Source: Planctomycetota bacterium
Lineage (GTDB): Bacteria; Planctomycetota; B15-G4; JADJEK01
Length of the DNA: 64,000 bases
Assembly (NCBI GenBank): GCA_044225365.1
Contig: JBGAIQ010000001.1
Location: 374,465 to 438,464, forward strand
Direction of reading: 5' to 3'
Shown here: piece after piece, positions 35,777 to 51,492 of the stretch
Position numbering within the stretch: the stretch's first letter is position 1
How the letters are laid out: every line of letters starts with the position of its first letter
The notes under the pieces: generated by a model
Seen by the model: the letters and a program-made list of their open reading frames with translations, nothing else
Databases searched by the model: none
What the model was told of the DNA's origin: nothing
Translations under genes and position numbers: made by a program

Positions 35777-37708
35777 GTGAATCCGTCTTCGCGCCCGGAA
35801 GGTGCCGTGCCGTTCGATCCCAACCTGAATCGAGGCAAGGACAGGGGCAACGACCTCGTCGAGCGAGTGCGGTCCGCGCTCGACATCGTCGACGTCGCGC
35901 AGACCTACTTCCCGGTGACGCGACGCGGCGCGAGCTTCATCGCGCTCTGTCCATTCCATCGCGAGAAGACGCCCTCGTTCCATCTGCACACGGCGCGCCA
36001 GACCTTCAAGTGCTTCGGTTGTCAGAAGGGCGGCGACATCTTCACTCTCGTGATGGAGATCGACAAACTCTCCTTCCGTGAGGCCTTGAAGGTCCTCGCG
36101 CAGCGCGCCGGAATTCCGGTTTCCGACTACGAGAATCCTCGATTCGCGAAAGCGGAAGAGAAGCGTCTCAAGCTGTTCACGATCCTGAAGCACGCCGAAG
36201 AGTTCTACCGCGATCAACTTCGCGGGAGCGCGGGGACGATGGCACGCGACTATCTCGCGCGTCGTGGGTTCTCGAAGGACGCGATCGAGTCGTTCGGCAT
36301 CGGCTTCGCGCCGGCCGAGTGGCGCGCCCTGTTGACGCACCTCCTCGCGCGCGGACACGCCGAAGAGGACACGATCCGGGCCGGCGTCATCAAGCACAAC
36401 GAAGAGAAAGGGCGGTCCTACGATCTCCTGCGGCGGCGGATCGTGATTCCGATCCGCGACTCGCGGGGCCGCTGCGTCGCATTCGGCGGACGCGTGCTCG
36501 ACGACGCGCCGGAGGACTCGGGTCCCAAGTACTTGAACACCGGCGAAACCGAGTTGTTCTCGAAGCGGCAGGTGTTGTTCGGGTTCGATCGGGCCCGCGA
36601 CGAGGCTTCGCAGCGTGGCGCGTTCGTCGTCGTCGAAGGCTATCTCGATGTGATCGCGTCGCATCAGCATGGCGCGAGGAACGTCGTAGCGACTCTCGGC
36701 ACCTCTCTGACCGGCGAGCACGCGCAGATCCTGCGTCGTTATGCAAGTCGAGTCGTGCTGCTCTTCGATCCCGACGAAGGCGGTCAACGCGGCACCGATC
36801 GTGGCGCCGCGATCCTGCTGCGCGAGGGATTCGACGTCCGCGTCGGCAGCCTGCCCGACGGTCTCGATCCCGACGAATATCTCGAGAAACACGGACTCGT
36901 CGCCTTCCAGGCCTTCCTCGCCGAGAAGACCGAAGAACTCGTCGAGTACCTGGTGCGCAGGGCGCGCGAGCGCGCGCTCTCGAACGAGGGCGGTGACGCC
37001 GCTTCGGCGCGCGCCGCCCGCGAAGTTCTGCAGTTCCTCGGACAGATCGCGGATCCGCTCCAGCGCGATCTGCTCGCGGCGCGCGTGGCCCGCGAATTCG
37101 GTCTCGACGAAACCGTCGTGCGACGAACCGCCGCAGAGATGGTGCGAGCCGAGTCGCGAAATGAGAATCGCTCCGCAACGGGCCATTTCGACGACGAATC
37201 GAGTTCGCAGCGCCTCGGGCCCGCCGCGCCGCTCGCGGGCTGGGAGCAAGATGAAGTTTTTGCCCTGCACGGGGCGCTGACGTGTGCAAAACTTGCGTGC
37301 CGCGCAGCGCAAGAGCTAACAGAGTCCGACTTCAGGGATCCCGGCCGGCAACGCGTGTTGAATGCGTTGATTCGACTCGTGGACGAGGGCACTACACCCG
37401 CCCCCTCCCTGCTGGCGGAAGTACTCAAGGAGGACATCCAAGCCGCTCTCGCCCTCTCGAAGGTGGTGGCTGCCGACGTTCCGGACGTTCCGGGCGACGA
37501 CAGCCTCGGGCGCGCCATGGATGCCTTGATCCGTCGGCGCAAGGACTTCGAGTACAAGAAGTTGCGAGACGAAGCAACGAAGAGCGGTGCGCTGCGTAGT
37601 AGCGATGATTCGGAGGTCGAGCGGCAACTCGAGGAGTTGTCGCGCTTCCAAGCCGAGCGCTACCAGCGATTGAAAGACGCCCGGCGCGGTCGCGCCGAAG
37701 GCGGATGA
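35777..37708 (+). CDS. dnaG: DNA primase
   Basis: CPFHREKTPSF..CFGC zinc finger, FGGR, PKYLNT, VEGYLDVI, FDPDEGG, DPDE. Confidence 0.97.
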   Translation: MNPSSRPEGAVPFDPNLNRGKDRGNDLVERVRSALDIVDVAQTYFPVTRRGASFIALCPFHREKTPSFHLHTARQTFKCFGCQKGGDIFTLVMEIDKLSFREALKVLAQRAGIPVSDYENPRFAKAEEKRLKLFTILKHAEEFYRDQLRGSAGTMARDYLARRGFSKDAIESFGIGFAPAEWRALLTHLLARGHAEEDTIRAGVIKHNEEKGRSYDLLRRRIVIPIRDSRGRCVAFGGRVLDDAPEDSGPKYLNTGETELFSKRQVLFGFDRARDEASQRGAFVVVEGYLDVIASHQHGARNVVATLGTSLTGEHAQILRRYASRVVLLFDPDEGGQRGTDRGAAILLREGFDVRVGSLPDGLDPDEYLEKHGLVAFQAFLAEKTEELVEYLVRRARERALSNEGGDAASARAAREVLQFLGQIADPLQRDLLAARVAREFGLDETVVRRTAAEMVRAESRNENRSATGHFDDESSSQRLGPAAPLAGWEQDEVFALHGALTCAKLACRAAQELTESDFRDPGRQRVLNALIRLVDEGTTPAPSLLAEVLKEDIQAALALSKVVAADVPDVPGDDSLGRAMDALIRRRKDFEYKKLRDEATKSGALRSSDDSEVERQLEELSRFQAERYQRLKDARRGRAEGG

Positions 37709-37816
37709 CGAACAAGGGCCGGCCATCGCCGGTCCGCAGTTGAGTGGACTCCGACTCGGGTTCGAGTCGAAGTCGGAATCGATCGGCCCGAGTGACGGGC
37801 TAGAAGGTGCGAGATC

Positions 37817-39460
37817 GTGGCGAGCAATGTGACGTTGGACGGAAGCACGAAGGTTCTTCTCGAGCGTGGTCGGAAGAAGGGCTTCGTGACCTACGAGGAG
37901 ATGAACCAGATCCTGCCGGACGAGGTCGTCTCGGGAGACAACATCGAAGCCGTCATCGCGCTCCTCGAGGAGCACGGCATCGAACTGGTCGACGACGCGG
38001 ACGTGCAAGAGACGCCGGACGGTCCGAAGAAGGCTCGCAGCGAGCCGGACCGGGCCGACGGAACCGGCGCCGAGAAGATCGACGACCCGGTCCGCATGTA
38101 CCTCACGCAGATGGGCGAGATCCCACTGCTGACGCGCGAGGAGGAGATCGATCTCGCGAAGCGCATCGAGACGACTCGCCGCGCGTTCCGCAAGTTCATC
38201 CTCTCCTCGGGATTCGCCTTCCGTGAGTCGATCAAGATCCTCGACGACGTCCTGCTCGGCGAGCTCGCGTTCGACCGTACGCTGAAGGTCGCGACGTCGT
38301 CGTCGGGTTCGACCGACGCGTCGAAGTCCGAGGTCGCGGATCGCCTCCAGGTGAACATCGGCACGCTGAAGAAGCTGCTCCACGCGACGAAGACGGACTA
38401 CAAGGCCGTGCTCCGCGGAAAGCTGTCGAACGAAGAGAAGGTGAATCGCATCCGACGCATCGGTTGGCGTCGTCGCCGCGCGGCGATGCTCCTCGAAGAG
38501 CTGAACATCCAGCTCAAGAAGGTGAAGCCGATGATCGAGCACCTGAAGGGCAAGTATCGCGAGATGCTCGTCGCCGAGAAGGGGCTCAAGGAGTATCGCG
38601 GCAGCAAGAATGCCGCGGAATTCCGGCGTCGTCGTCGCGCTCACGAGAAGTTCTGCATCGGTGCGCTCGAATCGCCGCGGCGACTCGGGATCCGCATCGA
38701 CGCGATCAATCGCCGGTACTCGGAGTACGAGACGGCGAAGATGAAGCTGTCGTCGGGCAACCTCCGACTCGTCGTCTCGATCGCGAAGAAGTACCGCAAC
38801 CGCGGTCTGTCGTTCCTCGACCTCATCCAGGAGGGCAACACCGGCCTGATGAAGGCCGTCGAGAAGTACGAGTACCGCCGCGGTTACAAGTTCTCGACGT
38901 ACGCGACGTGGTGGATCCGGCAGGCGATCACGCGTTCGATCGCGGACCAGGCGCGCACCATTCGCATCCCGGTCCACATGATCGAGACGATGTCGAAGCT
39001 GCGCAACGTCACGAAGAAGCTGATCCAGATGTACGGCCGCGAGCCGTCGATCGAGGAGGTCGCGCTCGCCGCGAACATCTCGATCGAGGAAGCGAAGCGC
39101 GTGATGAAGATCAGCAAGCACCCGATCTCGCTCGATCGACCGATCGGCGAAGGGGACGATTCGTACTTCGGTGATTTCATCGAGGACGAGTCCGCGGAGT
39201 CGCCGGTCAACGCGGCGGCGTACGTGATGCTGCGCGAGAAGATCGACTCGGTGCTCTCGTCGCTCTCGTTCCGCGAGCGCGAGATCATCAAGCTGCGCTA
39301 CGGCATCGGCGACGGTTACACCTACACCCTCGAAGAAGTCGGACGCATCTTCAAGGTCACCCGCGAACGCGTTCGGCAGATCGAGGCGAAGGCCGTCCGC
39401 AAGCTGCAGCACCCCGTGCGCAGTCGACTTCTCGAGGGCTTCCTCGAGAGCTTCGAGTGA
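37817..39460 (+). CDS. rpoD: RNA polymerase primary sigma factor
   Basis: Region 1.1, [63 protein letters not shown]; directly follows dnaG. Confidence 0.97.
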
Positions 39461-39485
39461 TCGCAGTCGCGAGGACCGCGGGACA

Positions 39486-39534
39486 CGAAGGCGCCGCTCG
39501 AGCGTGAATGCTCGGGAGGCGCCTTCGCCGTTTT
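39486..39534 (+). terminator. Putative intrinsic terminator after rpoD
   Basis: CGAAGGCGCC..CTCGAGC-loop-GCTCGGG..GGCGCCTTCG followed by a short T run. Confidence 0.55.
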
Positions 39535-39720
39535 CACCTCGACCTCTGCGAGAATCCTGCGATCCTTGGCGGGACGATTTCCGATACAATCCGCGGGTCG
39601 CAGCGAGTGCGACCGCATGAACTCGCGGGGTGACCGGGACGGGTGTGATGCCCGTCGCTCCGCTTCATCGTGACTCACGAACGCGACCTGTCGGCGATGG
39701 CCGGCGAATTGGAGGCGTGG

Positions 39721-40788
39721 ATGCGTCGAATGATCGGCTCGTGTCTGCTCGTCGGTCCCGGGTGTCTCCTCGCGACGCTGAGTGCGGCTCACGCGGGCGC
39801 GGACGCGGTCGTACCCACGATCCCCGTCAAGGTCGATCTCGTGGCGAAGACCTTCCGAACCTTCGACGTGCTGTTGCCGGCGCCGCAATTCCAGCCGGTC
39901 GGAAGCGGTTTCAACGTTCCGCACGAAGGCGGGGATCGCTTCGACGTGAAGGTCGAGGGCGATCGGCTCCGCGTCGATCTCGACGGCGACCACGCGACCG
40001 AGTCGCTCGTCGAAGGAGAATCGGGTTTCGTCACGTTGACCGGAAAGAGCACGACAGGCCATCCGATCGCGTATTCGGTTCGCCTCGTGCATCCGCCGGG
40101 TGAAGGCTGGAACTACTCGTGCGGCAGCGCGATGGTCGGCGAGGTCGCGGGAACGCGCGTTCAGGTCTTCGATCAGAATCTCAATGGTCGGTTCGATGAC
40201 GTCGGGGTCGATGCGATCGTCGTCGGCAAATCCCAGGTCGCGAGCTTCCTGTCGAAGGCTGTTTCCATCGGCAATTCGCTCTACGGGATCGAAGTGGCGA
40301 GCGACGGCTCGAGCCTCTCGTACGCACCGTTCGCGGGTGAGGCGGGCGAACTCGATCTCGTCACGCGTTTCGAGTGCAAGGCCGAACTCGCGGCGGCGGT
40401 CGTGACGAGTGCCGATGGCAGGTTCTCGTTCGATGTCGCCGCATCGAAGAGCGCCCTACGCGTTCCGGTCGGCGAATACACGATCCACTCGGGCCAACTC
40501 GCGCTGGGCGAGTCGCGAGCGTCGATGCGAACCGGACGCGCGCATCCGATCGGAGTGCGGAAGGACGAAACCACGACCGTCGAATGGGGCGGTCCCGCGA
40601 CCGCCGAGTTCGCCTGCGAGCGCAAGGGCGACACGCTCAACTTCTCGCCGTGGGACATCTGGTACTACGGACGCCTCGGGGAGGAGTACTTCAACTTCCT
40701 CCCACTTGGCAAATCCCCGGAGTTCTCGATCAAGAACAGATTGACGAAGGAGCTGATCCTCTACGCCAAGTTCCCGGGGAATTGCTGA
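39721..40788 (+). CDS. Secreted beta-rich hypothetical protein; conventional call ends at Cys-TGA, probably extended by selenocysteine read-through to 40959
   Basis: ATG after GGAGG; signal peptide (..ATLSAAHA); Ca-binding-like DLDGD and DQNLNGRFDD loops; ends FPGNC-TGA. Confidence 0.85.
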   Translation: MRRMIGSCLLVGPGCLLATLSAAHAGADAVVPTIPVKVDLVAKTFRTFDVLLPAPQFQPVGSGFNVPHEGGDRFDVKVEGDRLRVDLDGDHATESLVEGESGFVTLTGKSTTGHPIAYSVRLVHPPGEGWNYSCGSAMVGEVAGTRVQVFDQNLNGRFDDVGVDAIVVGKSQVASFLSKAVSIGNSLYGIEVASDGSSLSYAPFAGEAGELDLVTRFECKAELAAAVVTSADGRFSFDVAASKSALRVPVGEYTIHSGQLALGESRASMRTGRAHPIGVRKDETTTVEWGGPATAEFACERKGDTLNFSPWDIWYYGRLGEEYFNFLPLGKSPEFSIKNRLTKELILYAKFPGNC

Positions 40789-40959
40789 AGCTTCGGCTTC
40801 GTTCCGGTCGCCGTGAGCGTGCCGGCAAAGTTCGAGGTCGAGATCACGATGACCGCGGAGAACTGGGCTTTCGGGACCGTGACGGGTGCATTGCGCGAGA
40901 GCGCGCAGGCGTTGAGCGAGCGTCCCGCCGGCACCGACAAACCCGCCGCGGGACAATGA
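40786..40959 (+). other. Putative in-frame UGA (Sec) codon plus 56-codon C-terminal extension
   Basis: TGA then SFGFVPVAVSVPAKFEVEITMTAENWAFGTVTGALRESAQALSERPAGTDKPAAGQ-TGA in the same frame, with mostly G/C-ending codons. Confidence 0.62.
40804..40825 (+). promoter_or_regulatory. Candidate bacterial SECIS hairpin
   Basis: CCGGU-CGC-[CGUGA]-GCG-U-GCCGG; apical loop starts 23 nt after the UGA, with GU at loop positions 2-3. Confidence 0.45.
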
Positions 40960-40999
40960 TGCGGTGTGTCGGACTCCGGTCCGCGCCGGAGTGATGGAC

Positions 41000-41034
41000 G
41001 AACACCGAGCACAGGGCGCAGGGCACAGAGCACA
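41000..41034 (+). repeat. Degenerate heptamer tandem repeat (5 units)
   Basis: GAACACC GAGCACA GGGCGCA GGGCACA GAGCACA. Confidence 0.55.
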
Positions 41035-41170
41035 CGGGTGAGGTCGAAAGCGCGCGCGAATTTCGCGGCTCTTCCGCGCTTCATTTCGTTCTGACTTGCC
41101 ACGGACTGCGAGCGGATCCGTACAATGGGCGCGCTGCTCCTTCGCCCAACGGGACGCTCCCATTTCCGCC

Positions 41171-43585
41171 GTGAATCCATCGATCGCTTCGAGCGCGTCG
41201 AGCCACCGCTCGCCCAGGCCGCATCGCCGCCACACCCTCGCTCTCGCGCTCTCGATCCTCGTGAGCGCCGACCTCGGTCTTGGCGAGTTCGTCCCGTGCT
41301 ACGGCGTCGCGCGCGCCGAGGATGCGCCGTCGACCGCGGTCGCGCGCGTGCCCGTGCACATCGTGAACGGCCGGCTCGTGGTCGCGTGTCAGTTGTCCGC
41401 CGGGAAGCGAATCGCGGTCAATCTGTTCCTCGACTACGACGCGAAGTGCGGGCTCATCCTGCACAATCGCGCCGCGCAAGGGATCGAGGCCGAGGCGGCC
41501 GATGGCACGCCGCACAAGATCACGATCCATCTGCCTGACCTCAACATCGAGGTCGCGCAGCGTGAACTCGGTGCCGAAGAGTTCTACGAACGCTTCACGA
41601 AGTGGTACAGCAAGGAACTCGGGGAGAACGCGATCGTCGGCACCCTGGGTTCAGCGGTCCTCTCGCGTTATCACCTGACCTTCGATCTCAACGCCGGGTT
41701 CGTCGAGTTCGAACGGATCCACCCGGCGACGGGCAAGCCGCCCGAACCCGTCGCGGGTTCCACGACCCTGCCGCTCACCGAATTCAACGACCTGGTGTGG
41801 TGTCCCGTCGGTCTCACGGGCGGACAAGGCGGCATCGGCCGAGCGATCGCGATCGCCACGTCGACCTACGACACGCTCATCGACACGCCGCTCGCCGACG
41901 AGCTCGCTCACCCTGCGGGGGACGTCGGACCGGTCCGACTCGGCGACATCGATCTGTCGAAGTACGTCGCCTTCCGCCCCGAGGCGGTCCATCAGAAGCA
42001 TCCGGATGGCGTGTTCGGCAGCATGGGGCTCAATTTCCTCGAGCACTTTCGCGTCGAGGTGGACCGCGTGAATCGGTTCGTGCGGTTCACCGAGAGCAAG
42101 CCGGCGAGCTTCCCAACGGCCGATCTCGAGTTCTTCCAGGCGCGCGCGAGCGACGATGAACACGCGCTCGCCGCGTGGGTCGAGAAGTACAAGACGGAGC
42201 GGCTCGCGCCCGAAGCCGCGCAGCTCCTACTCGATCGGCGTCTCGACTCGAACGCGCCGACGGAATCGATCCGAACGGCGCTCGAAGCGCTCGCGGCGAC
42301 GCGCCCCGCCGACCTGAAGGCCACGGGCGCACTCGAGTCGATGCAGCAGATGTCCCAGGCGGGCAAGTTCGAATGGGCGCTCGCGGCGGCGGAGCTCGGG
42401 CTCGCGCACGGACGGGAGGACCGGTATCCGGACGCCGTCCACAAGCTCCACGCTCGTATGGGTTCGATCCTCCTCGACCGCGGTGAGCGCCGCGAAGCCT
42501 GGAAGCATCTGCTCTCCGCGGCGTTCGGATTGCCCGACGACGGACCCCTCAATCTCGATCTCGGGCGCTGCTACGAGCAAGAAGGGCGCTTCTCGCGAGC
42601 CTACTCGCGCTACCTGCTCGCGTTGCTCTCGCCCGACAGCGGGCCCGCTGCGATCGAAGGACTCGAACGCGTGCAATCGAAGCTCGATGACGGCGAATCG
42701 TTCTCCGTCGACTCGATCGAACGCATGATCGAGGGAAAGATCGAGGGCTTCGGCGCCGCGACGAAGTTCCAGCCCGAGGACGGCAAGCCACCGACGCGTG
42801 CCGTGCTCGTCGAGTACTACACCAACGCGAACTTCGAGGGCGAAGCGGGCGTCGTGCTGGCGCGCGATGGTCTCCGCGATCACTTCGGTGATTCGAATGC
42901 CGTGCTCATCACATACGACGTCGAGAAGCCCGCGCTCGATCCCCTGATGAATCCGTTCTCGACCTTCATGTTCGAGACCTATGCCGGCAAGGACCTCGCC
43001 CATGTCGCCGACGGTACCCGCGGCCTGCCCGTCGGAGCGCGCACGCGTTTCAAGCAGCAGGTCTTCGACTCCTGTCGCGGCACGATCGAGGGGCGTCTCG
43101 GCGAACCGGGCAATTTCGTGTTCGCGATGCAGGCGCATGCCGATGCGAAAGGGATCCGCGGCCAGGTCACACTGAAGCCGATCGCCACGAGTCCCATCGA
43201 CCCTTCGGAAGCGCACGATCTCGTCGTGCAGGTGTTGCTGGTCGAGCGCGGCGTCCTGTATCCGGGCAAGAGCAAGGTCGTGGTGCATCGCAACGTCGCC
43301 CGCGCCGCATTGACGAGTTCGATGGAGGGCGTCGCGTACGATCCGGCGACGGCCAAGGAAGGAACCACGACGATCGAGTTCGATCGCGACTTCGCGTCGA
43401 TCGTCGCCGCGAACAACGCCTATCTCGACGACCTCGCCAAGAAGGGCAAGGGCCAGACCTCGCGTCTCGCCGTGCGAATCGATCCGCGCCAAGTGAGGGT
43501 CGTGGCGATCCTGCGTCGCGTGACGGACGGCGAAGTATTCGCGGCGGCGCAGCTCGACCCCGATCTCGACGAGGCACTGCGATGA
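41171..43585 (+). CDS. Exported multidomain protein: two retropepsin-like domains, TPR region, thioredoxin-like/Omp28-like C-terminus
   Basis: NLFLDYDA..VGTLGSAVLSRYHLTFD and FGSMGLNFLEHFRVEVD (aspartyl-protease-like), TPR-like LNLDLGRCYEQEGRFSRA, AVLVEYYT..VLITYD and VHRNVARA. Start uncertain (ORF from 41096). Confidence 0.75.
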   Translation: MNPSIASSASSHRSPRPHRRHTLALALSILVSADLGLGEFVPCYGVARAEDAPSTAVARVPVHIVNGRLVVACQLSAGKRIAVNLFLDYDAKCGLILHNRAAQGIEAEAADGTPHKITIHLPDLNIEVAQRELGAEEFYERFTKWYSKELGENAIVGTLGSAVLSRYHLTFDLNAGFVEFERIHPATGKPPEPVAGSTTLPLTEFNDLVWCPVGLTGGQGGIGRAIAIATSTYDTLIDTPLADELAHPAGDVGPVRLGDIDLSKYVAFRPEAVHQKHPDGVFGSMGLNFLEHFRVEVDRVNRFVRFTESKPASFPTADLEFFQARASDDEHALAAWVEKYKTERLAPEAAQLLLDRRLDSNAPTESIRTALEALAATRPADLKATGALESMQQMSQAGKFEWALAAAELGLAHGREDRYPDAVHKLHARMGSILLDRGERREAWKHLLSAAFGLPDDGPLNLDLGRCYEQEGRFSRAYSRYLLALLSPDSGPAAIEGLERVQSKLDDGESFSVDSIERMIEGKIEGFGAATKFQPEDGKPPTRAVLVEYYTNANFEGEAGVVLARDGLRDHFGDSNAVLITYDVEKPALDPLMNPFSTFMFETYAGKDLAHVADGTRGLPVGARTRFKQQVFDSCRGTIEGRLGEPGNFVFAMQAHADAKGIRGQVTLKPIATSPIDPSEAHDLVVQVLLVERGVLYPGKSKVVVHRNVARAALTSSMEGVAYDPATAKEGTTTIEFDRDFASIVAANNAYLDDLAKKGKGQTSRLAVRIDPRQVRVVAILRRVTDGEVFAAAQLDPDLDEALR

Positions 43586-45093
43586 CGAACGACGTCCTCC
43601 TGCGCGCGGAGCTCGATCGGATCGGCGCCAAGATCGCGTCGTCGCTGCAGCGGGCTCGAATACGCGAAGCCGCGGCCGCTCGACTTCGAGCGACCGCGCC
43701 GTGGCTCGTGATCGCTCCGGCCGTCGCGGTCGTGATCGCGTCGTTCGGGCGACTCGTCGATCCCCGCATCGGGGTCGACCTCCTCTGGATCGCCGTGTTC
43801 GCGATCGCTCCGACGCTCGTCCTCACGTTGCTCGCGGTCTTCGAAGTGGCTCTGCGGCTCACGCACGGCAGCGAAGGTCTCGCGCGACTCGATCACGATC
43901 TTCGACTCGAGGGTCGGCTCAGGGCGGCTCACGATTTCCTCTCTCGCGCGGAAACGAGTTCGTTCCAACGCGCGGCGATCGAGGACGCGGTTCCCCATCT
44001 CGCGAGGGCCGCAGCCTACGAAGTCCCGACGACACGAGTGGAGTGGCCGATCGGTCGACTCCTTTCGTGCTCCGCGCTCGCGGTGGTGCTCGGCGTGCTC
44101 GCGGCATTCCTTGCTCCCACTGAGGGTGGGAGCGCCGAGACCGTGGGGGCTCGACGCGATCCGTTCGTCGCGGCGAGCCCGACGGCGCAGCGGCGCGACG
44201 CTCCCGCGCGCGAACGGGGCCCGACCGATTCGAAGAAGCCGGAACCGGAACGCACGAAATCGCCCGGCGCGGAGACGAAGACGAGCGCCGCGAAGGCCGC
44301 GCCTTCGCTCGACTCCAAGGCGCGCGAGAGCGAGGGCAAGACCGGGGAAGGCATTTCCGCGAATGCGACGCCGACGAACGCCGCATCGAATTCGCGGGGC
44401 TTCACCTCGTCCCAGACACCGCCCTCCGACAAGACCGAGAAGACCGAAGGCAAACCGAAGAAGGTGAAGCCGAAGAAGCCGGAGAAGGAAGTCCCAACGG
44501 TCAAGAAGAAGCTCGATTCGTCGGGCGCCACGGCGGGCAAGGGGACCGGCGCGGGCTCGAGCAAGAATCCGGGCTCCACCGAATGGGAGAGCAAGGATCA
44601 GACGACCTCCGACGAAGAGGATCCCCTCACGGAGGACGAGGAAGTGAACGACGAGGACGACGAATCGGAGGCGCGCGGCGGTCTGCAGCCGAGCCTGCGC
44701 GATCGTCGACCGGCGACGAATCGCGACCTCCTCATCGGATTCGGCAATCAGCCGAATCCCGACGCCAACGGACGGGGCGGCCCCTCCGAGCAGAAGAAAT
44801 CGCGCGGTGTCGCTTCGCTCGTCCTCGGCGTGCCGATCCCCGATCACGTGAAGGGCCAACCGAATCCGGGCCGCACGAAGATCACTCAGGAGCGCGTGCT
44901 GCCGGAACCGGACACAGTCGCTCCCCTCGCGGCGGAGTCGCGCCCACCTCGCTCGTCTCCCGTCGCCGCTCGCGACGAAGGCGCGCTTCCCGCGGAGCCG
45001 TGGCTCCATACCCTCGTGAAGAACTACTTCCTCGCGGCCCGCGCCGTCGGCGCCGCGTCCGAATCCTCCGCTTCGAAAGCCAAGGGACCATGA
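43582..45093 (+). CDS. Membrane-anchored protein with long low-complexity linker (MoxR-operon associated)
   Basis: Three TM segments, LDHDLRLEGRL, K/E/P/S-rich linker, C-terminal LVKNYF; ATGA-coupled on both sides. Confidence 0.8.
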   Translation: MTNDVLLRAELDRIGAKIASSLQRARIREAAAARLRATAPWLVIAPAVAVVIASFGRLVDPRIGVDLLWIAVFAIAPTLVLTLLAVFEVALRLTHGSEGLARLDHDLRLEGRLRAAHDFLSRAETSSFQRAAIEDAVPHLARAAAYEVPTTRVEWPIGRLLSCSALAVVLGVLAAFLAPTEGGSAETVGARRDPFVAASPTAQRRDAPARERGPTDSKKPEPERTKSPGAETKTSAAKAAPSLDSKARESEGKTGEGISANATPTNAASNSRGFTSSQTPPSDKTEKTEGKPKKVKPKKPEKEVPTVKKKLDSSGATAGKGTGAGSSKNPGSTEWESKDQTTSDEEDPLTEDEEVNDEDDESEARGGLQPSLRDRRPATNRDLLIGFGNQPNPDANGRGGPSEQKKSRGVASLVLGVPIPDHVKGQPNPGRTKITQERVLPEPDTVAPLAAESRPPRSSPVAARDEGALPAEPWLHTLVKNYFLAARAVGAASESSASKAKGP

Positions 45094-46124
45094 GCAGCGA
45101 GAATCCCGCCTCCGTCGCGTCCGCCGACCCCTCCGTGGCGCGCGAGCAAGCCGATCGCTTCGTATCGGTGCATCAGAAGATTCGCGCCGAGGTCGGCCGT
45201 GCGATGGTGGGTCAGGACGAGGTCGTCGATGGCGTGCTCGCGGCGCTCTTCGCGGGCGGACACGTCCTACTCGAAGGCGTCCCCGGCCTCGGCAAGACGC
45301 TCCTCGTCCGCACGCTCGGACAAGCCGTCGATCTCCAGTTCTCGCGCATCCAGTTCACGCCGGACATGATGCCCGCGGACATCCAGGGCACGATGGTGCT
45401 GATCGAGAGCGAAGGGGGAGCGCATCGCCTCGAATTCCAGGAGGGCCCGCTCGTCGCGAATCTCGTACTCGCGGACGAGATCAACCGTGCGACGCCGAAG
45501 ACGCAGTCGGCGCTCCTCGAAGCCATGCAGGAGAAGCAAATCACGGTGGGCAAGCGGACGATCCGACTCACCGAACCGTTCTGCGTGATGGCGACGCAGA
45601 ATCCCGTGGAGCAGGAAGGCACTTACCCGCTGCCCGAAGCGCAGCTCGATCGCTTCTTGTTCAAGGTACTCGTCGGATATCCGCGCGAGGCCGAGTACGC
45701 CGAGATCCTTCGCCGCACGACGGGGCGTACCGACGCAGAGGTCGCCAAGGTCTCGAACGGCGCCGAGATCGTCGAACTTCGCCGCATCGTCCGCGCGGTG
45801 CCGGTCCCCGAACACGCCGAGACCTATGCCGTCCGCCTCGTGATGGGCACCCAGCCGAAGAGCGGGTACTCGAGCAAGCTCGTCGACGACATGGTCGCGC
45901 TCGGCTCGTCACCGCGCGGCGCGCAGGCGCTGCTGCTCGGCGCCAAGGTGAAGGCCCTACTAGCGCGGCGCTTCTCCGTCGCGATCGAGGACATCGCCGC
46001 CGTGGCGCCCGCCGTGCTCCGCCATCGCGTCATGGTGAACTTCCGTGCTCACGCGGAGAACGTGTCCGTCGAGGACGTCGTGAAGGATGTGTTGAAGACG
46101 GTCGTCGCACCCCGCGGAGCGTGA
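45090..46124 (+). CDS. moxR: MoxR-family AAA+ ATPase
   Basis: GHVLLEGVPGLGKT, RIQFTPDMMPADI, LADEINRATPKTQSALLEAMQE, ATQNPVEQEGTYPLPEAQLDRF, SPR, LRHR. Confidence 0.96.
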   Translation: MSSENPASVASADPSVAREQADRFVSVHQKIRAEVGRAMVGQDEVVDGVLAALFAGGHVLLEGVPGLGKTLLVRTLGQAVDLQFSRIQFTPDMMPADIQGTMVLIESEGGAHRLEFQEGPLVANLVLADEINRATPKTQSALLEAMQEKQITVGKRTIRLTEPFCVMATQNPVEQEGTYPLPEAQLDRFLFKVLVGYPREAEYAEILRRTTGRTDAEVAKVSNGAEIVELRRIVRAVPVPEHAETYAVRLVMGTQPKSGYSSKLVDDMVALGSSPRGAQALLLGAKVKALLARRFSVAIEDIAAVAPAVLRHRVMVNFRAHAENVSVEDVVKDVLKTVVAPRGA

Positions 46125-46172: not shown

Positions 46173-47087
46173 ATGGGAAAACCCATCGCCAGAACCGACC
46201 TTTGCGACGCAGCGTTCCTCGCGGCGCTCGATCGCTTGCGAATCGTTGCCAAACGCGTCGCCCCGCGCGGCCGATTCGCGGAGCAGCGATCGGCCGACAA
46301 GGGTGCGGGCATCGAGTTCAAGGACTATCGACCGTACGTCGCGGGTGACGACCTGCGAGCGATCGACTGGAACGTGTATCGCCGGCTCGGCCGCGTGTTC
46401 GTCCGTCTCTTCGAGGAGCTCGAGGACCTTCCGCTCTATCTGCTGCCGGACGTCTCGCGCAGCGCCTTCTTCGAGACCGCGACGGAAAAGCCGCGAGTGA
46501 TCGCCGGGTTGCGCGCCGCCCTCGGGTTCGCGGCGGTGAGTCTCGGGCAGCACGATCGCGTCGGCGTGTTCCCCTTCGCCGACGACCTGCGCGTCCTCGT
46601 GCGCCCGTCGGGCGGGAAGGGCCGCATCCTCTCGCTCGCGGAACGCGTTGCTTCGCTCGTCGAGAGTGGGCCCAATCGGCCGACCGACATCGAACGATCG
46701 CTCGCCACCTTCCAGAGCTTGCGACTTCGCGAAGGACTCGTCGTCCTGCTGTCGGACTTCTTCGATCCGCGCGGTCTCGACGTCGTGACGCGCGCGATCT
46801 CGAGACTGCGTCATCGCGTGCTGCTGGTGCGCCTCGTGCGCACGAGCGACGCCGAACCGACGCTGCGGGGTGATCTGCGACTCGTCGACTGCGAGAGCCG
46901 TTTGGCGGCCGATGTCTCGATCACCGATGCGCTCCTGCAGCGGTACCGAGCCGCCCATCAGCGATTTCGCGATGGACTCGCGACGTTCGCCGTCGCGCAC
47001 GGATTCGGACTCGTCGAACTCGACGTCGATCGCGACGTGCTCCCGCAACTCGAACGATTGTTCGCGCACGGAGCGTTCGTCGCATGA
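46173..47087 (+). CDS. DUF58 (VWA-like) protein
   Basis: GIEFKDYRPYVAGDDLRAIDWN, DVSRS, VVLLSDFFD. Confidence 0.93.
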   Translation: MGKPIARTDLCDAAFLAALDRLRIVAKRVAPRGRFAEQRSADKGAGIEFKDYRPYVAGDDLRAIDWNVYRRLGRVFVRLFEELEDLPLYLLPDVSRSAFFETATEKPRVIAGLRAALGFAAVSLGQHDRVGVFPFADDLRVLVRPSGGKGRILSLAERVASLVESGPNRPTDIERSLATFQSLRLREGLVVLLSDFFDPRGLDVVTRAISRLRHRVLLVRLVRTSDAEPTLRGDLRLVDCESRLAADVSITDALLQRYRAAHQRFRDGLATFAVAHGFGLVELDVDRDVLPQLERLFAHGAFVA

Positions 47088-48925
47088 GATTCACGTTCTT
47101 CTCGCCCGTCACCTTCGCGCTCGGGGCCGCGGTGATCGCGGGAATGCTCTTCCTGCTCCAGCGCCTGCGAGTGCGGTTCGCCGAACTCGAGGTGGTCACC
47201 ACGTTGTTCTGGCGCGAAGCGATCGAGGAGACGCGCGCCCGCGTCTTCGTGCAGCGTTTCCGTCATCCGCTCGCGTATGCCCTGTTCCTGCTGATCGCGA
47301 TACTCTTGTGGTTCGCCGCGGCGGGACCCGTGCGATCGAGCGCGGGCGACGGCCGATACGTGCTGCTGCTCGACGCATCGGCAGGGATGGCGAGGAGTGG
47401 TCGTTTCGCTCGAGCGATCGAGGTCCTGAAGAGGCGCGCGGCCGAACTGCCGCGAAGCACCACGAGCGTGTTCGTTGCGAACTCGCGACTGACGACGGTC
47501 CTCGAGCCGGACGAGCCGCTCCAGATCCTCGGCAGGCGCCTGTTGGATCGATCGCCCGAGAGCTGTCCGTCCACGCTCGAATCCGCGATCCTCGCGATCG
47601 CAGAATCCGAGCCATCGCCCGCATCGACGCCATCGACGACCGGCTCGGACGAGGAGCCTGGGAATGCGCTCACGATCGAGATCGTCGGCGACGGGCCCGT
47701 CGCCGAGTCGGTCGCGAAGATCGCGTCGAGCCGAAACCGACGAGTCTTTGTCGCGCGGGTCGATCTCGACGATCCGTCGACCGTGGCAATGGCGAATGCG
47801 GGGATCATTGCGCTGGGTGTCTCGGAGAGTCTCTCCGGCGCCGCCGATCGAGTGGATCTGTATCTCGAGGTCGCGGGCGTCGATCCCGGTGCACGGGCTC
47901 CGGTCGCGGTCGAAGTCGATGGCCGCCCGATCGCGAGCGATCTCATCGGCCTTCCCGCGCGTGCGTCGGTCACCGACCCTGCGAGGCGCCGCTTCGTCGT
48001 TCGTGATCTACCGGCTCGCGGCGGCACGGTCGAGGCCTATCTCTCGAGTGCGACTCCCGACGGTCTCGCACTCGACGATCGTGCGAAGCTCGTGTTGCCG
48101 AATCGACCGCCGCTGCGGGTCGCCCTCCTCGCGTTGCCGGGGGATGCAGCGACGGCCATCGGGAGCGCGCTTGCGGCGGACACCGGGATCGAAGTCGTGA
48201 CGGATGCGCCCGACGTCGTCGTACGACGCAAGGGCGACGGCGGATTCCCCGGCACGCCGGCGCTCGAACTCGACGAAGCGATGACGGGCCCTGCGTTCGT
48301 CGTCGGCATCGAGCGGGGCGAAGCGCAGGACGTCCTCGCCGATTCGTTCGAGCGACTGGGCCTTCGCGACATCGACGCCGTCGCGCTCGCGACCGCGGCC
48401 CAACGTCCGATCGAGCTCTCCGTCGAGACCGCGGTGGAGCATCGCTCGGTGACGATCTGGAGCGATCTCCTCGCGGCGACGCACGATTTCACGGCTTCAC
48501 GCGCGTTCCCGCGATTCGTCGCCCGAGCGATGCGATTCCTCGCGGCGCGGCCACCGCTCGTGCGAGGCGTCGCCGCCGGGCGGCGTCTCGACGTCGAGGA
48601 CGATGGTCCGACGTCTCTCACGTTCGACGGACGATCGCCCTTCGATGGCGTCGGTGCGGCTTTCCGCGTACCGATCGCGGGTCCGCTCACCGATTCGCGA
48701 AACCAGCGAATGCATGCTTCGCTCCTGGATCTCGCGACGACGGCAGGGCCCGTCGAGGCGAAAGACGCGAAGAAGGATCCCGGAGCGGTCGGAGAAGGAG
48801 CGGCGGGAAATGGAATCGCGACGGCCGGGCTCGGTCGTGATTCGATCCTGACGATCGCGATCCTTCTCGCGCTTCTGCTGCTCGCGGCGGAATGGGTCCT
48901 CACGCGCAGGGAGGCGATCCCGTGA
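47084..48925 (+). CDS. BatA-type N-terminal domain / VWA-like membrane protein
   Basis: N-terminal double TM with TLFWRE, LLLDASAGM, DGLALDD, C-terminal TM ending AEW. Confidence 0.85.
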   Translation: MRFTFFSPVTFALGAAVIAGMLFLLQRLRVRFAELEVVTTLFWREAIEETRARVFVQRFRHPLAYALFLLIAILLWFAAAGPVRSSAGDGRYVLLLDASAGMARSGRFARAIEVLKRRAAELPRSTTSVFVANSRLTTVLEPDEPLQILGRRLLDRSPESCPSTLESAILAIAESEPSPASTPSTTGSDEEPGNALTIEIVGDGPVAESVAKIASSRNRRVFVARVDLDDPSTVAMANAGIIALGVSESLSGAADRVDLYLEVAGVDPGARAPVAVEVDGRPIASDLIGLPARASVTDPARRRFVVRDLPARGGTVEAYLSSATPDGLALDDRAKLVLPNRPPLRVALLALPGDAATAIGSALAADTGIEVVTDAPDVVVRRKGDGGFPGTPALELDEAMTGPAFVVGIERGEAQDVLADSFERLGLRDIDAVALATAAQRPIELSVETAVEHRSVTIWSDLLAATHDFTASRAFPRFVARAMRFLAARPPLVRGVAAGRRLDVEDDGPTSLTFDGRSPFDGVGAAFRVPIAGPLTDSRNQRMHASLLDLATTAGPVEAKDAKKDPGAVGEGAAGNGIATAGLGRDSILTIAILLALLLLAAEWVLTRREAIP

Positions 48926-51492
48926 ACTTCACCTGGCTCGCCCCCGGATGGCTCTTCCTGCTCCTGGCGTTGCCGCTCGTCCCGCTCGTTCGGGCTCGGG
49001 TCACAGTGCCGTTCCATGCGCTCTTGCGCGCCGTCGTCCTGCTCCTCGTCATCGCCGCGCTCGCCCGTCCCGCCTACTTCGGGAAGGATGAGCGCCATCG
49101 CGCGGTGTTCATCGTCGACGTCTCGCCGAGCGCGGAGATCGAGAGCGATGTTTCGGGGAGCGGGATCGAAGCGAAGGTCCTGGCAGCGTGCGATCGTCTC
49201 CGGAAGGACTCGAGGGACGCGATCGCGTCTCTCGTCGTGGTCGGAGGCGGTGCGCGGGCCGCGGCTCTTGGCGAAGGTGCGAGGTCGCATTTCGATTCCG
49301 TGGCGGTCCTCGCGGTGCAGGCCACCCGCTCGTCCGGTCTCGCGGCTGCGCTCGAAGCGGCGGCTCGTTGCATCCCCGAAGGCGCGCCCGGGTCGATCAC
49401 GCTCCTCACGGATGGCCTTGCCACCGATCGCCACCACGGAGACGTGCTCGTCGGACTCGAGGCGCGGGGCATCCCGGTCCATGTCGTGCCGCTCCCTGCG
49501 ACGCGTCACGCTCCCGTCATCGCGTCGATCTCGACTCAAGAAGCGCTACGCGTCGGCGCGGAGGGGGAAATCGTCGTCGACGTCGTGGGGCAGGGCGAAC
49601 TCGTTCAGGTGGGACTCACGGTCGACGGAGTGGAGATCGGTGTCGAGGGCGCTCGCATCGCGGACGATCGCGGCGTGGCGCGCTTCCGCTACGAACCGAA
49701 GACCCCCGGGTTCGGGCGAGTGCGTGCCCGCATCGTCGCCTCCGAAGGGGTGAACGGACGCCAGGATCCGCCCCCGCCGCCACTGGATTCGTTGCTCGCC
49801 GTGCAGCCGCCCATGCGCATGCTCTACCTCGGAGATCGCATCGATGGCGCGAAGGAGAAGCTCGGCGAACTCGTGGGAGGGGGCATCGTATTCGACGCCT
49901 GGCGACCCTCCGACAACGTCGCGTTCCCCGACCTCGCCCGTTACGACGGCGTCGTGCTCGACGACATGCCGGCGAAGATCCTGGGGTCCGAAGCGCAGCG
50001 TGCGATCACGAACGCGGTGACGGAGCGTGGCCTCGGGTTGTTCGCGAGCGGCGGCGAAGCGGCGTTCGGTCCCGGCGGGTATCACGACTCGGAGATCGCG
50101 AAGATCCTCCCCGTGTCCGCGCAGCAGAAGGAAGAGAAGCGCGACCCGAGCACCACTCTCGTGCTGGTCGTCGACACCTCGGGATCGATGACCGGCGAGC
50201 GAATCCAACTCGCGAAGGAAGTCGCGCGCCTCGCGATGTCCCGCCTCCTGCCGCACGACAAGGTGGGCATCGTCGAGTTCTACGGGGCGAAGCGTTGGGC
50301 CGCGCCGATCCAGCCGGCGTCGAACACGATCGACCTGTCGCGTGCGATCAACCGTATGGACGCCGGCGGCGGCACGGTGATCCTCCCTGCGATCGAGGAA
50401 GCGTTCTACGCGATGCAGAACGTGCAGACGCGATACAAGCACGTCCTCGTGCTCACCGACGGTGGCGTCGAGAACGGCGCGTTCGAGCCGCTGCTGCGCC
50501 GGATGGCCGACGAAGGGATCACCACCTCGACCGTGCTCATCGGGCCCGAGGCGAACAGCGAGTTCCTCGTCGACCTCGCGAACTGGGGCAAGGGCAGGTT
50601 CTACAGCGTCCCCGACCGATTCAATCTGCCGGAGATCCTGTTCAAGCAGCCGACGAGTTCGCGCCTTCCGGCCTACAAGCCGGGATCGTTCGCCGTGACC
50701 GCGCACGGCGGCCCGGGCTTCTTCGGCGCCGTCGATCGCAGTGCGATCCCGAACATCGCCGGTTACGCCGACACCGCCGCGCGCCCCGGCGCCGAAGTAT
50801 TGCTCGAAGCCGAGAGCGAGCATGCGCCGCTGCTCGCGACCTGGCAGTTCGGACTCGGACGCGTCACCGCGTTCATGACCGAGCCCGTCGGACCGGGCAC
50901 CGCGCCATGGCGCGACTTCCCAGGATACGGTGCCCTGCTCCGCCGCATCCTCGAGCGAACGGCGGGTGACGGCGGCTTGCCCTTCGACTTCATGCTCCAG
51001 CGCGACGGGGCCGTCGTCGAGGTCGTCGCGACGCGTCGTATCCGCGCCGAGATCGAACCTGCCGCGCAGCGCGTCGACGAGCGAGGCACCGCGCTCGCGG
51101 AGCTCACGTTCGAGGAGCGCGCGGACGGACGATTCGTCGCCGATGCGCTCGTACCTTCGGACGAGGACATCCGCCTCGTGGGCGGTGCGCGAAAGAGTGG
51201 GGGCGGGATCGATGGAGACGCAGGTCTCGTCTACCGTGCGCTCCACGCGCATGCCGACGAGCGCGACGAACTGGCCGTCGCCAGGAGCGAGGGCCTCGAT
51301 CTGCCCCATCTCGCGAGGGCGACGCAGGGCGACCTGGTGGCCTTCGATCGACTCGGAGGGTTCGCACCGCGACCTTCGAGCGGAGGCGGCGAGCGACTCG
51401 TCGAGCTCGCTCCCTCGTTCCTCGTCCTCGGCCTCCTGCTCTATCTCTTCGAACTCTTCCACCGCAGACGATCCTCGGGAGGCGCCGCATGA
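48922..51492 (+). CDS. VWA-domain membrane protein with glutamine-amidotransferase-like middle domain
   Basis: VDVSPS and LLTDG; YDGVVLDD..GGEAAFGPGGY..LPV; second VWA with MIDAS VDTSGSM, GGGT, LTDG, GKGRFY; C-terminal TM. Confidence 0.9.
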   Translation: MNFTWLAPGWLFLLLALPLVPLVRARVTVPFHALLRAVVLLLVIAALARPAYFGKDERHRAVFIVDVSPSAEIESDVSGSGIEAKVLAACDRLRKDSRDAIASLVVVGGGARAAALGEGARSHFDSVAVLAVQATRSSGLAAALEAAARCIPEGAPGSITLLTDGLATDRHHGDVLVGLEARGIPVHVVPLPATRHAPVIASISTQEALRVGAEGEIVVDVVGQGELVQVGLTVDGVEIGVEGARIADDRGVARFRYEPKTPGFGRVRARIVASEGVNGRQDPPPPPLDSLLAVQPPMRMLYLGDRIDGAKEKLGELVGGGIVFDAWRPSDNVAFPDLARYDGVVLDDMPAKILGSEAQRAITNAVTERGLGLFASGGEAAFGPGGYHDSEIAKILPVSAQQKEEKRDPSTTLVLVVDTSGSMTGERIQLAKEVARLAMSRLLPHDKVGIVEFYGAKRWAAPIQPASNTIDLSRAINRMDAGGGTVILPAIEEAFYAMQNVQTRYKHVLVLTDGGVENGAFEPLLRRMADEGITTSTVLIGPEANSEFLVDLANWGKGRFYSVPDRFNLPEILFKQPTSSRLPAYKPGSFAVTAHGGPGFFGAVDRSAIPNIAGYADTAARPGAEVLLEAESEHAPLLATWQFGLGRVTAFMTEPVGPGTAPWRDFPGYGALLRRILERTAGDGGLPFDFMLQRDGAVVEVVATRRIRAEIEPAAQRVDERGTALAELTFEERADGRFVADALVPSDEDIRLVGGARKSGGGIDGDAGLVYRALHAHADERDELAVARSEGLDLPHLARATQGDLVAFDRLGGFAPRPSSGGGERLVELAPSFLVLGLLLYLFELFHRRRSSGGAA

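Follow-up and report, generated by a model that had tools for sequence, protein, structure and literature searches.

Whether an in-frame TGA codon ends translation or specifies selenocysteine (Sec) is the question raised by a locus in a 64,000-nucleotide (nt) stretch of DNA from a Planctomycetota bacterium (contig JBGAIQ010000001.1 of assembly GCA_044225365.1, positions 374,465 to 438,464 of the forward strand; this whole stretch is called the window, and all positions below are counted from its first letter). An open reading frame (ORF) on the plus strand starts with ATG at 39721 and runs through 355 codons to ...KFPGNC, where it meets a TGA at 40786-40788. The region 39721-40959 (+) is very probably one selenoprotein gene of 412 codons, in which the UGA at 40786-40788 encodes Sec at residue 356 and the true stop is the TGA at 40957-40959, an extent that was derived from the translation and from a full-length alignment of relatives (A3). 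The UGA would thus be a stop only in appearance, and annotation as a 355-amino-acid (aa) protein would give the wrong end for the whole family.

Beyond the TGA the frame continues through 56 sense codons (40789-40956, +), which gives a read-through product of 412 aa; a gene caller that stops at 40788 yields 355 aa, and this is the length of the database copy of the protein (P0002). The proportion of codons ending in G or C is 0.839 in frame after the TGA and 0.80 before it, compared with 0.625 and 0.554 in the other two frames. The first-pass annotation, made from the letters of the window alone, had described an ORF ending at FPGNC-TGA with 56 further codons behind it, a preference for G/C-ending codons past the TGA, a product of 412 aa with Sec at about residue 356, and truncation by standard gene callers. 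All of these descriptions proved correct when the frame was re-examined.

The evidence that carries the selenoprotein reading comes from relatives. A protein search returned 54 of them, 50 of which end exactly one residue before the TGA, in nearly all cases with ...FPGNC. Two others (P0003 and P0004) have Cys at the Sec position followed by a tail that aligns to the extension of the window's protein, and the remaining two are fragments. In a six-frame search of 401 genomes of the phylum, 129 matched; among the 57 matches with E ≤ 8.5e-50, 53 cross at least one in-frame TGA and reach about residue 385-411 of the query, and four contain no TGA. The codon itself was then read directly in 30 loci, where it is TGA in 28 and TGC in two (L024 and L029), and in 80 further loci from named genome records, where it is TGA in 78 and TGC in two (L078 and L154); the two sets overlap in some genomes. 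Trp, Arg, TAA or TAG at the Sec position was not seen in either set. The peptide past the UGA is conserved in the same frame in three alignments (A1, A3 and A6): residues 357-391, which include three beta strands of the last domain, are conserved over about 35 residues with the consensus G-x-G-[FM]-x-P-V-A-V-S-V-P ... N-W-A-F-G-x-x-x-G-x-P-R, and residues 392-412 form a variable tail.

These results bear directly on a reading in which the TGA is a true stop of a 355-aa protein and the conservation behind it belongs to a separate small gene or a non-coding element. Gene callers do end the protein at this codon, and TGA is the usual stop in this genome. Nevertheless, we regard such an arrangement as highly improbable. 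The peptide behind the TGA has no start codon of its own, is conserved in frame and is joined through Cys to the body of the protein in full-length relatives, the structural model described below builds the extension into the last domain, and the TGA is constant whereas the true stops of the relatives vary, being TAG or TGA at different places.

A profile search of 1.84 billion representative proteins showed how widely the family extends, with 1265 clusters (at 50% identity) at E ≤ 1e-3, 707 at E ≤ 1e-10 and 197 at E ≤ 1e-30. When 199 retrieved relatives were re-scored against the profile, 127 were found to end at the Sec position, 17 to reach the extension and 55 to be fragments or to have another C-terminus. 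In a separate, hand-picked set of 17 long relatives, 12 carry Cys at the Sec position and five do not. The relatives are labelled almost entirely as Planctomycetota, with one record assigned to Proteobacteria and a few only to 'bacterium'; cultured and named carriers are Engelhardtia mirabilis Pla133 and Rohdeia mirabilis Pla163.

The genome also contains the required decoding machinery. A tRNA-Sec is present (68.5 bits; called by ARAGORN as tRNA-SeC with anticodon tca), together with selB (346.5 bits), selA (486.6 bits) and selD (361.5 bits). The selD gene of this genome is itself a member of a classical selenoprotein family, with its own in-frame TGA in the context ...SSCAGU AAKLPP.... All 10 neighbouring genes that were checked end with TGA, and there is therefore no genome-wide reassignment of this codon. 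As a separate observation, selA adjoins selD on a contig other than that of the window (G000:C90:85984-88375, loci L017 and L018).

An artefact, whether an error of sequencing or assembly or a nonsense mutation newly arisen in a decaying gene, would have the bare presence of a stop codon in its favour and nothing further, and its probability is practically negligible. A 6211-nt contig from an independent assembly of a public run is identical to the window over 39650-41050, although the two may share a sample. Another study contributed a 569-nt contig, representing a relative of about 95% identity, that covers 40456-41024 with 30 differences, and none of the 28 that are listed falls within 40783-40829. 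The TGA region, for which a check against sequencing error had been proposed, is thus kept in both contigs. TGA in 78 of the 80 other loci is a further argument, and the comparative data by themselves already refute an artefact.

The first-pass annotation had named as support a tblastn-type search that finds homologs with TGA or Cys at this position and conserved sequence behind it, and as grounds for rejection homologs with TAA/TAG, with Trp or Arg, or with no downstream conservation, as well as a genome without sel genes. The search recovered such homologs throughout (28 with TGA and two with TGC among 30 loci, 78 and two among 80), the 30 and 80 loci contain none of the opposing patterns, and selA, selB, selD and tRNA-Sec (selC) are all encoded. 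The selenoprotein reading is therefore supported, in that none of these tests refuted it.

Immediately downstream of the TGA, a hairpin with a G and a U in its loop had been pointed out, and it is present as described. The sequence CCGGUCGC-CGUGA-GCG-U-GCCGG spans 40804-40825, with its loop at 40812-40816, 23 nt after the TGA, and G and U at loop positions 2 and 3. The selenocysteine insertion sequence (SECIS) hairpin shared with relatives occupies 40805-40824 (+), where 40805-40811 pairs with 40817-40819 and 40821-40824 around the loop CGUGA and leaves a bulged U (40820) on the 3' side. This 7-bp helix begins 19 nt on from the UGA, and an extra C-G pair (40804/40825) is found only in the window's copy.

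We analyzed 77 distinct TGA-form sequences, in which the 54 nt from the TGA align gap-free. In the helix formed by columns 20-26 with 32-34 and 36-39 (bulged U at column 35), 94.4% of the cells are paired, and none of 500 shuffles reached either this paired fraction or the covariation score; four pairs have changed on both sides. Compensatory pairs include 25-33 (GC in 68 sequences, AU in nine), 26-32 (CG in 74, UA in three) and 23-36 (UA in 40, UG in 22, CG in 11). The switches at 26-32 and 25-33 change the encoded residue at one or at both of the paired positions (Ala to Val/Thr, Ser to Asn/Asp), and therefore the protein has been altered in a way that preserves the RNA pairing. Loop nucleotides C27, G28, U29 and G30 are invariant. 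The 30-sequence set gave a consistent picture, with 88.3% of cells paired and none of 500 shuffles as high, and RNAalifold returned the same helix with no structure supplied.

Synonymous sites lead to the same conclusion. Codons of the 5' arm and loop lack synonymous variation in the 30-locus set (CCG in 29 of 29, GTC in 24 of 24, GCC in 25 of 25 and GTG in 29 of 29), and the third-position entropy averages 0.33 at the hairpin, compared with an average of 1.13 for 62 further columns whose amino acid is conserved (Mann-Whitney p = 0.0014). The Cys form at L154 has kept the peptide PVVVSVP and drifted synonymously, and its hairpin is gone (-2.3 versus -10.7 kcal/mol), so that it represents a natural control in which the constraint on the hairpin has lapsed. 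The Cys form at L024 and L078 has lost the GU of the loop (GTG to GCG). Covariation and frozen synonymous sites together support selection on the hairpin at the RNA level, and few natural cases in which coding sequence has to accommodate an RNA structure are as clean as this SECIS element.

In selD of this genome, the hairpin has 8 bp and exactly the same CGUGA loop, placed 26 nt past the TGA as against 23 nt in the window. A search of 39500-41300 against Rfam gave two chance-level matches (E = 1.1 and 6.5) and no SECIS family. A covariance model of the hairpin (R1), run on its own genome, recovered the gene itself at E = 7.7e-14, the next match having E = 0.34, and did not recover selD; the model is too family-specific for finding other selenoprotein genes.

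Several observations weigh against the selenoprotein reading or reduce the force of its support. At least 56 open codons follow 407 of the 1329 TGA codons (31%) in any frame of the window, whose GC content is 65%, and the minimum-free-energy fold of 40780-40860 is not unusual relative to shuffles (z = -0.14). The hairpin is still intact in the Cys form at L029 and largely kept in that of L024/L078, and some of the conservation at nucleotide level could therefore stem from recent ancestry or from constraint on the protein. The TGA form is accompanied by selA in all 42 other genomes that carry it, a weak discriminator given that selA is found in 290 of the 401 genomes sampled from the phylum and that kinship makes genomes non-independent. 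A look for expression listed no RNA run that contains the stretch. Among the listed changes in the 569-nt contig, four of five after the TGA are non-synonymous versus five of 22 before it; the post-TGA changes lie in columns variable within the family, and counts this small cannot be used in either direction. An open frame or the folding energy alone is within chance, and it is because of the comparison with relatives that the observation goes beyond chance.

In the established bacterial pathway, SelB carrying Sec-tRNA(Sec) would recognise the hairpin on the translating mRNA and insert Sec at the UGA, and failure of decoding would release a protein of 355 aa whose last domain is three strands short. 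E. coli FdhF is a bacterial selenoprotein decoded in this way by SelB and SECIS. The present gene resembles such selenoproteins in its in-frame UGA, in the close hairpin with G and U in the apical loop, in the Cys found in some relatives and in its expected dependence on selA, selB, selC and selD. It differs from them in belonging to a family without a Pfam or NCBIfam model and in the bulged U on the 3' side of the hairpin, and the hairpin sequence is unusually conserved across proteins that are only 40-60% identical.

Neither the window's protein (P0001) nor its Cys-containing homolog P0004 has a match in Pfam or NCBIfam, in keeping with the earlier remark that no family could be recognised, and sequence-profile searches of the PDB gave nothing significant. 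A search of the ESM Atlas with P0004 yielded only 'hypothetical protein' clusters of Planctomycetota and one cluster in which 38% of the members carry GEVED. Sources that name family members call them 'hypothetical protein'. The family is undescribed in the literature searched, including the table of a 2022 review of prokaryotic selenoproteins, and a member might be listed in the S9 Table of PMC4807772 (selenoprotein candidates of two planctomycetes) or among the GOS_A and GOS_B sequences of PMC2398784. By the counts of the latter paper, GOS_A and GOS_B are dominated by Cys (two Sec to 155 Cys and 11 Sec to 125 Cys, respectively), unlike the family described here, which is Sec-dominant (127 truncated Sec forms versus 17 full-length relatives). 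That this is a new selenoprotein family, with a decoding mechanism that is itself standard, is well supported. Since the family is systematically truncated at the Sec codon in public databases, a model flagged as selenoprotein would correct hundreds of planctomycete annotations. It is a Sec-dominant family with a rare Cys-Sec (CU) motif, in a phylum whose selenoproteome has barely been described.

What the protein does was approached from its structure, its Cys-Sec motif and its neighbours. The AlphaFold2 model, built from a 19-sequence alignment, is all-beta (mean predicted local distance difference test score, pLDDT, 86; predicted template modeling score 0.79). The extension contributes strands 363-366, 373-381 and 385-391 (block pLDDT 92, 91 and 84) to the last domain, and the 355-aa product would therefore lack part of that domain. 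The loop bearing Cys and Sec (block 351-360) has a pLDDT of 67, below its surroundings, and the tail 392-412 is of low confidence. Foldseek comparison of the full-length model with the PDB gave a best query-normalised TM score of 0.18, to generic tandem beta-sandwich proteins, and was rejected as a functional lead.

The N-terminus (39721-39795, +; MRRMIGSCLLVGPGCLLATLSAAHA) was read by eye as signal-peptide-like, relatives have similar N-termini, and residues 1-28 are disordered in the model (pLDDT below 50), which fits a signal peptide; from these features we infer that the protein is exported. Exported selenoproteins are uncommon, though with precedent. The best-conserved parts of the body are two DxDxDG-type motifs (residues 86-94 and 151-164), which we take to be possible Ca2+ sites. 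The first (D86-L-D-G-D..., 39976-40002, +) has D86 invariant in alignment A1 and nearly so in A3, with G89 and G91 nearly invariant in A1. The second (DQNLNGRFDDVGVD, D151...D164, 40171-40212, +) is the most conserved part of the N-terminal two thirds, and D151, G156, G162, D164 and A165 are invariant in 19 sequences. One distantly related protein (P0155) has a weak FG-GAP_3 match. The region shared with distant paralogs that lack the TGA covers about residues 70-345, and two of these paralogs (P0177 and P0179) carry an N-terminal zf-HC2 anti-sigma domain; on this basis, the body may be a periplasmic sensing or binding module and may also serve as the outer domain of anti-sigma factors.

Cys355, encoded by TGC at 40783-40785 (+), is the vicinal partner of Sec. 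Among the 127 relatives ending at Sec, 105 have such a CU motif and four have CxxU; the order U-G-C was found in L125 and L134. GCUG was read exactly in L033, L034, L040 and L049, in two of which (L040 and L049) the full loop is GGCUGGG, and the Cys forms have GGCCGGG. In mammalian thioredoxin reductase (TrxR), a vicinal Gly-flanked Cys-Sec pair likewise lies on a flexible segment and cycles between selenenylsulfide and selenolthiol (PMC2268967). Unlike TrxR, the window's protein has no FAD/NADPH domain and no homology to the enzyme, its motif is internal, 56 residues from the C-terminus, rather than penultimate, and it is predicted to be exported. The resemblance is one of motif only.

The genomic context offers another line of evidence. 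The selenoprotein gene heads a conserved operon with a Bat-like gene set, MoxR-DUF58-VWA-TPR, whose members are all on the plus strand. It is followed by genes for an 829-aa protein (41096-43585) and a 503-aa protein (43582-45093, its start overlapping the preceding stop), neither of which belongs to a known family. The 829-aa protein has an invariant Cys98 and faint TPR signals, with nothing significant in Pfam, NCBIfam or the PDB, and the 503-aa protein has a strongly conserved, charged C-terminal block. These two genes (41096-45093) always accompany the selenoprotein and MoxR genes. Next come a MoxR-type AAA+ ATPase (ORF 44583-46124; AAA_3 at 9.5e-62, and AAA_lid_2), whose ORF is probably longer than the gene, with the real start near 45100, a DUF58 protein (46173-47087; PF01882 at 6.9e-34) and a 613-aa protein (47084-48925) that matches the BatA N-terminal family PF07584 weakly (E = 0.0011; 19.7 bits, below the 25.9-bit cut-off). 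The order from the selenoprotein gene as far as the 613-aa gene is collinear in 14 of 21 neighbourhoods, or 13 of 21 for the 613-aa gene itself. Genes for an 866-aa VWA-domain protein (48892-51492; VWA_2 at 2.3e-17, VWA at 7.8e-17) and a giant TPR protein of 2195 aa (51489-58076; TPR_14 at 5.4e-15), probably the last of the operon, were seen in the window.

This arrangement resembles Bat operons in its downstream MoxR AAA_3, DUF58, weakly BatA-like, VWA and TPR genes and differs from them in the three extra genes before MoxR (those for the selenoprotein, the 829-aa and the 503-aa protein). No report of a selenoprotein in Bat-like or MoxR operons was found, judging by titles, in the literature searched for 'selenocysteine' and 'MoxR'. 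For Bat proteins, the reduction of oxidised proteins in the periplasm or the export of reducing power has been proposed (PMC3557215).

Taken together, the Gly-flanked vicinal pair (GCUG in some relatives), a Cys partner that shifts but is usually retained, and the Bat-like context are the reasons for which we favour, tentatively and by analogy, a redox role: the Cys355-Sec356 loop may be a redox-active selenolthiol/selenenylsulfide pair. The protein would be exported by the Sec secretion pathway before the loop acts; the loop would sit on a three-domain beta-sandwich scaffold, probably stabilised by Ca2+, and its partners in the cell envelope would be the products of the MoxR-DUF58-VWA-TPR genes transcribed with it.

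Four findings count against this functional assignment. Pfam, NCBIfam, Foldseek/PDB and PDB sequence searches gave no match to a redox domain or fold. The 18 of 127 relatives without a Cys within four residues before Sec weaken the case for an obligatory Cys-Sec pair. A second subfamily, with the GGCUGGG loop, has unrelated neighbours. Finally, the redox role of Bat operons is itself unproven, Leptospira bat mutants having shown no oxidative phenotype (PMC3557215).

A more specific proposal, which we consider rather unlikely, is that the Cys-Sec protein is the missing chemically active subunit of Bat-like MoxR-DUF58-VWA-TPR systems, a selenol centre for redox chemistry or chalcogen transfer that is matured or positioned by the MoxR/VWA machinery. 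If true, this would provide the first testable chemistry for widespread Bat-like operons long suspected of controlling the periplasmic redox state, and through a sister subfamily joined to the selD-selA cluster this module would also be connected with the supply of selenium. The link to MoxR-DUF58-VWA-TPR genes offers a chemical handle on Bat-like systems, and the cultured carriers make experiments feasible.

Alternatively, the Cys-Sec loop of the same selenoprotein could bind, sense or detoxify soft metals (such as Hg, Cu, Cd or As) in the envelope, a function that is a serious rival to the redox role and that we nevertheless think doubtful. According to the argument of the preprint 10.1101/2022.07.06.499078, CU motifs are rare and mark contact with heavy metals in SaoL, SaoB, SaoC, HgcA and some MerT proteins, of which SaoB and SaoC are extracytoplasmic. 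The paralogs P0177 and P0179, in which the body would form the outer domain of zf-HC2 anti-sigma factors, suggest a ligand-sensing module, and double-Sec (UU) variants occur in the family. On the other hand, nothing in Pfam or NCBIfam links the protein to MerB, to MerT, to substrate-binding proteins or to a metal-binding family of any kind, and the conserved operon contains no metal transporter or resistance gene. The family also differs from the SAO and HgcA selenoproteins with CU motifs in that it has no MerB, substrate-binding-protein or HgcA match, occurs in a different phylum and lies in a different operon; in the part of 10.1101/2022.07.06.499078 that was available, the list of CU families does not mention it and 'planctomyc' has no occurrence.

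The double-Sec variants have two consecutive TGA codons (..PG[ST]-U-U-G..) and were found at L036, L147 and L149, the last being the record of Rohdeia mirabilis Pla163. If both TGA codons are decoded, a single hairpin would serve a Sec-Sec dipeptide.

A sister subfamily of short proteins (about 300 aa) was detected in a low-GC lineage (L071-L075, at G260:C35, G163:C8, G102:C29, G349:C7 and G260:C27). Its Sec motifs are FPGCUG or FC[VG/VT]UGG, with CxxU in three of four genomes, its downstream peptide (DYSGGV) is different, and its hairpin has a different 7-bp stem, UUACUCC-GGY-GGAGUAA, with the loop starting 24 nt after the UGA. The gene lies directly upstream of selD-selA in all four genomes, which belong to one family. 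In two of these genomes, a second TGA-containing selD follows selA.

This position suggests a further function, in which the flexible G-G-C-U-G-G-G loop of the selenoprotein is a covalent sulfur or selenium carrier (persulfide or selenotrisulfide) for selenium acquisition or chalcogen trafficking. The glycine-rich loop, whose low model confidence was noted above, would suit such a role; SoxY, for example, is a sulfur carrier with a C-terminal GGCGG arm. We nevertheless judge a carrier improbable. In the genome of the window, selA and selD lie on another contig, and the main subfamily is linked to the MoxR operon. Selenoprotein genes are, moreover, often located near sel genes without a role in selenium supply, as stated for fdhA in PMC4807772. 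A redox pair remains the function that we prefer.

Some minor features of the locus and the family were also recorded. Upstream of the selenoprotein gene lie dnaG (35777-37708) and rpoD (37817-39460). A 757-aa ORF at 37316-39589 (-) was rejected as a gene, being an antisense shadow of rpoD; several ORFs of 500-750 aa in the window are antisense shadows of real genes in this GC-rich DNA, and ORF length alone is misleading. BLASTP comparison of two flanking ORFs with the selenoprotein gave E > 1, and they were rejected as paralogs. A terminator-like site (41064-41078) is no more than chance would give. Located 14 nt past the true stop is a perfect inverted repeat of 7 bp (ACTCCGG tccgcg CCGGAGT, 40973-40992), with no T-run after it.

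The sole paralog in the same genome is a 692-aa ORF without TGA and without a family (L050, G000:C95:251367-254930), similar to the selenoprotein at E = 5.5e-7 over residues 136-302. It lies directly upstream of the gene for seryl-tRNA synthetase, the enzyme that charges tRNA-Sec with serine, which may be coincidence. The neighbours of the second subfamily (a tricorn-like S41 protease, a homocysteine methyltransferase, an aminotransferase and others) were considered as a functional lead and gave no hint. At three loci of this second subfamily (L062, L063 and L064), tandem paralogs stand immediately upstream of the TGA-containing copy.

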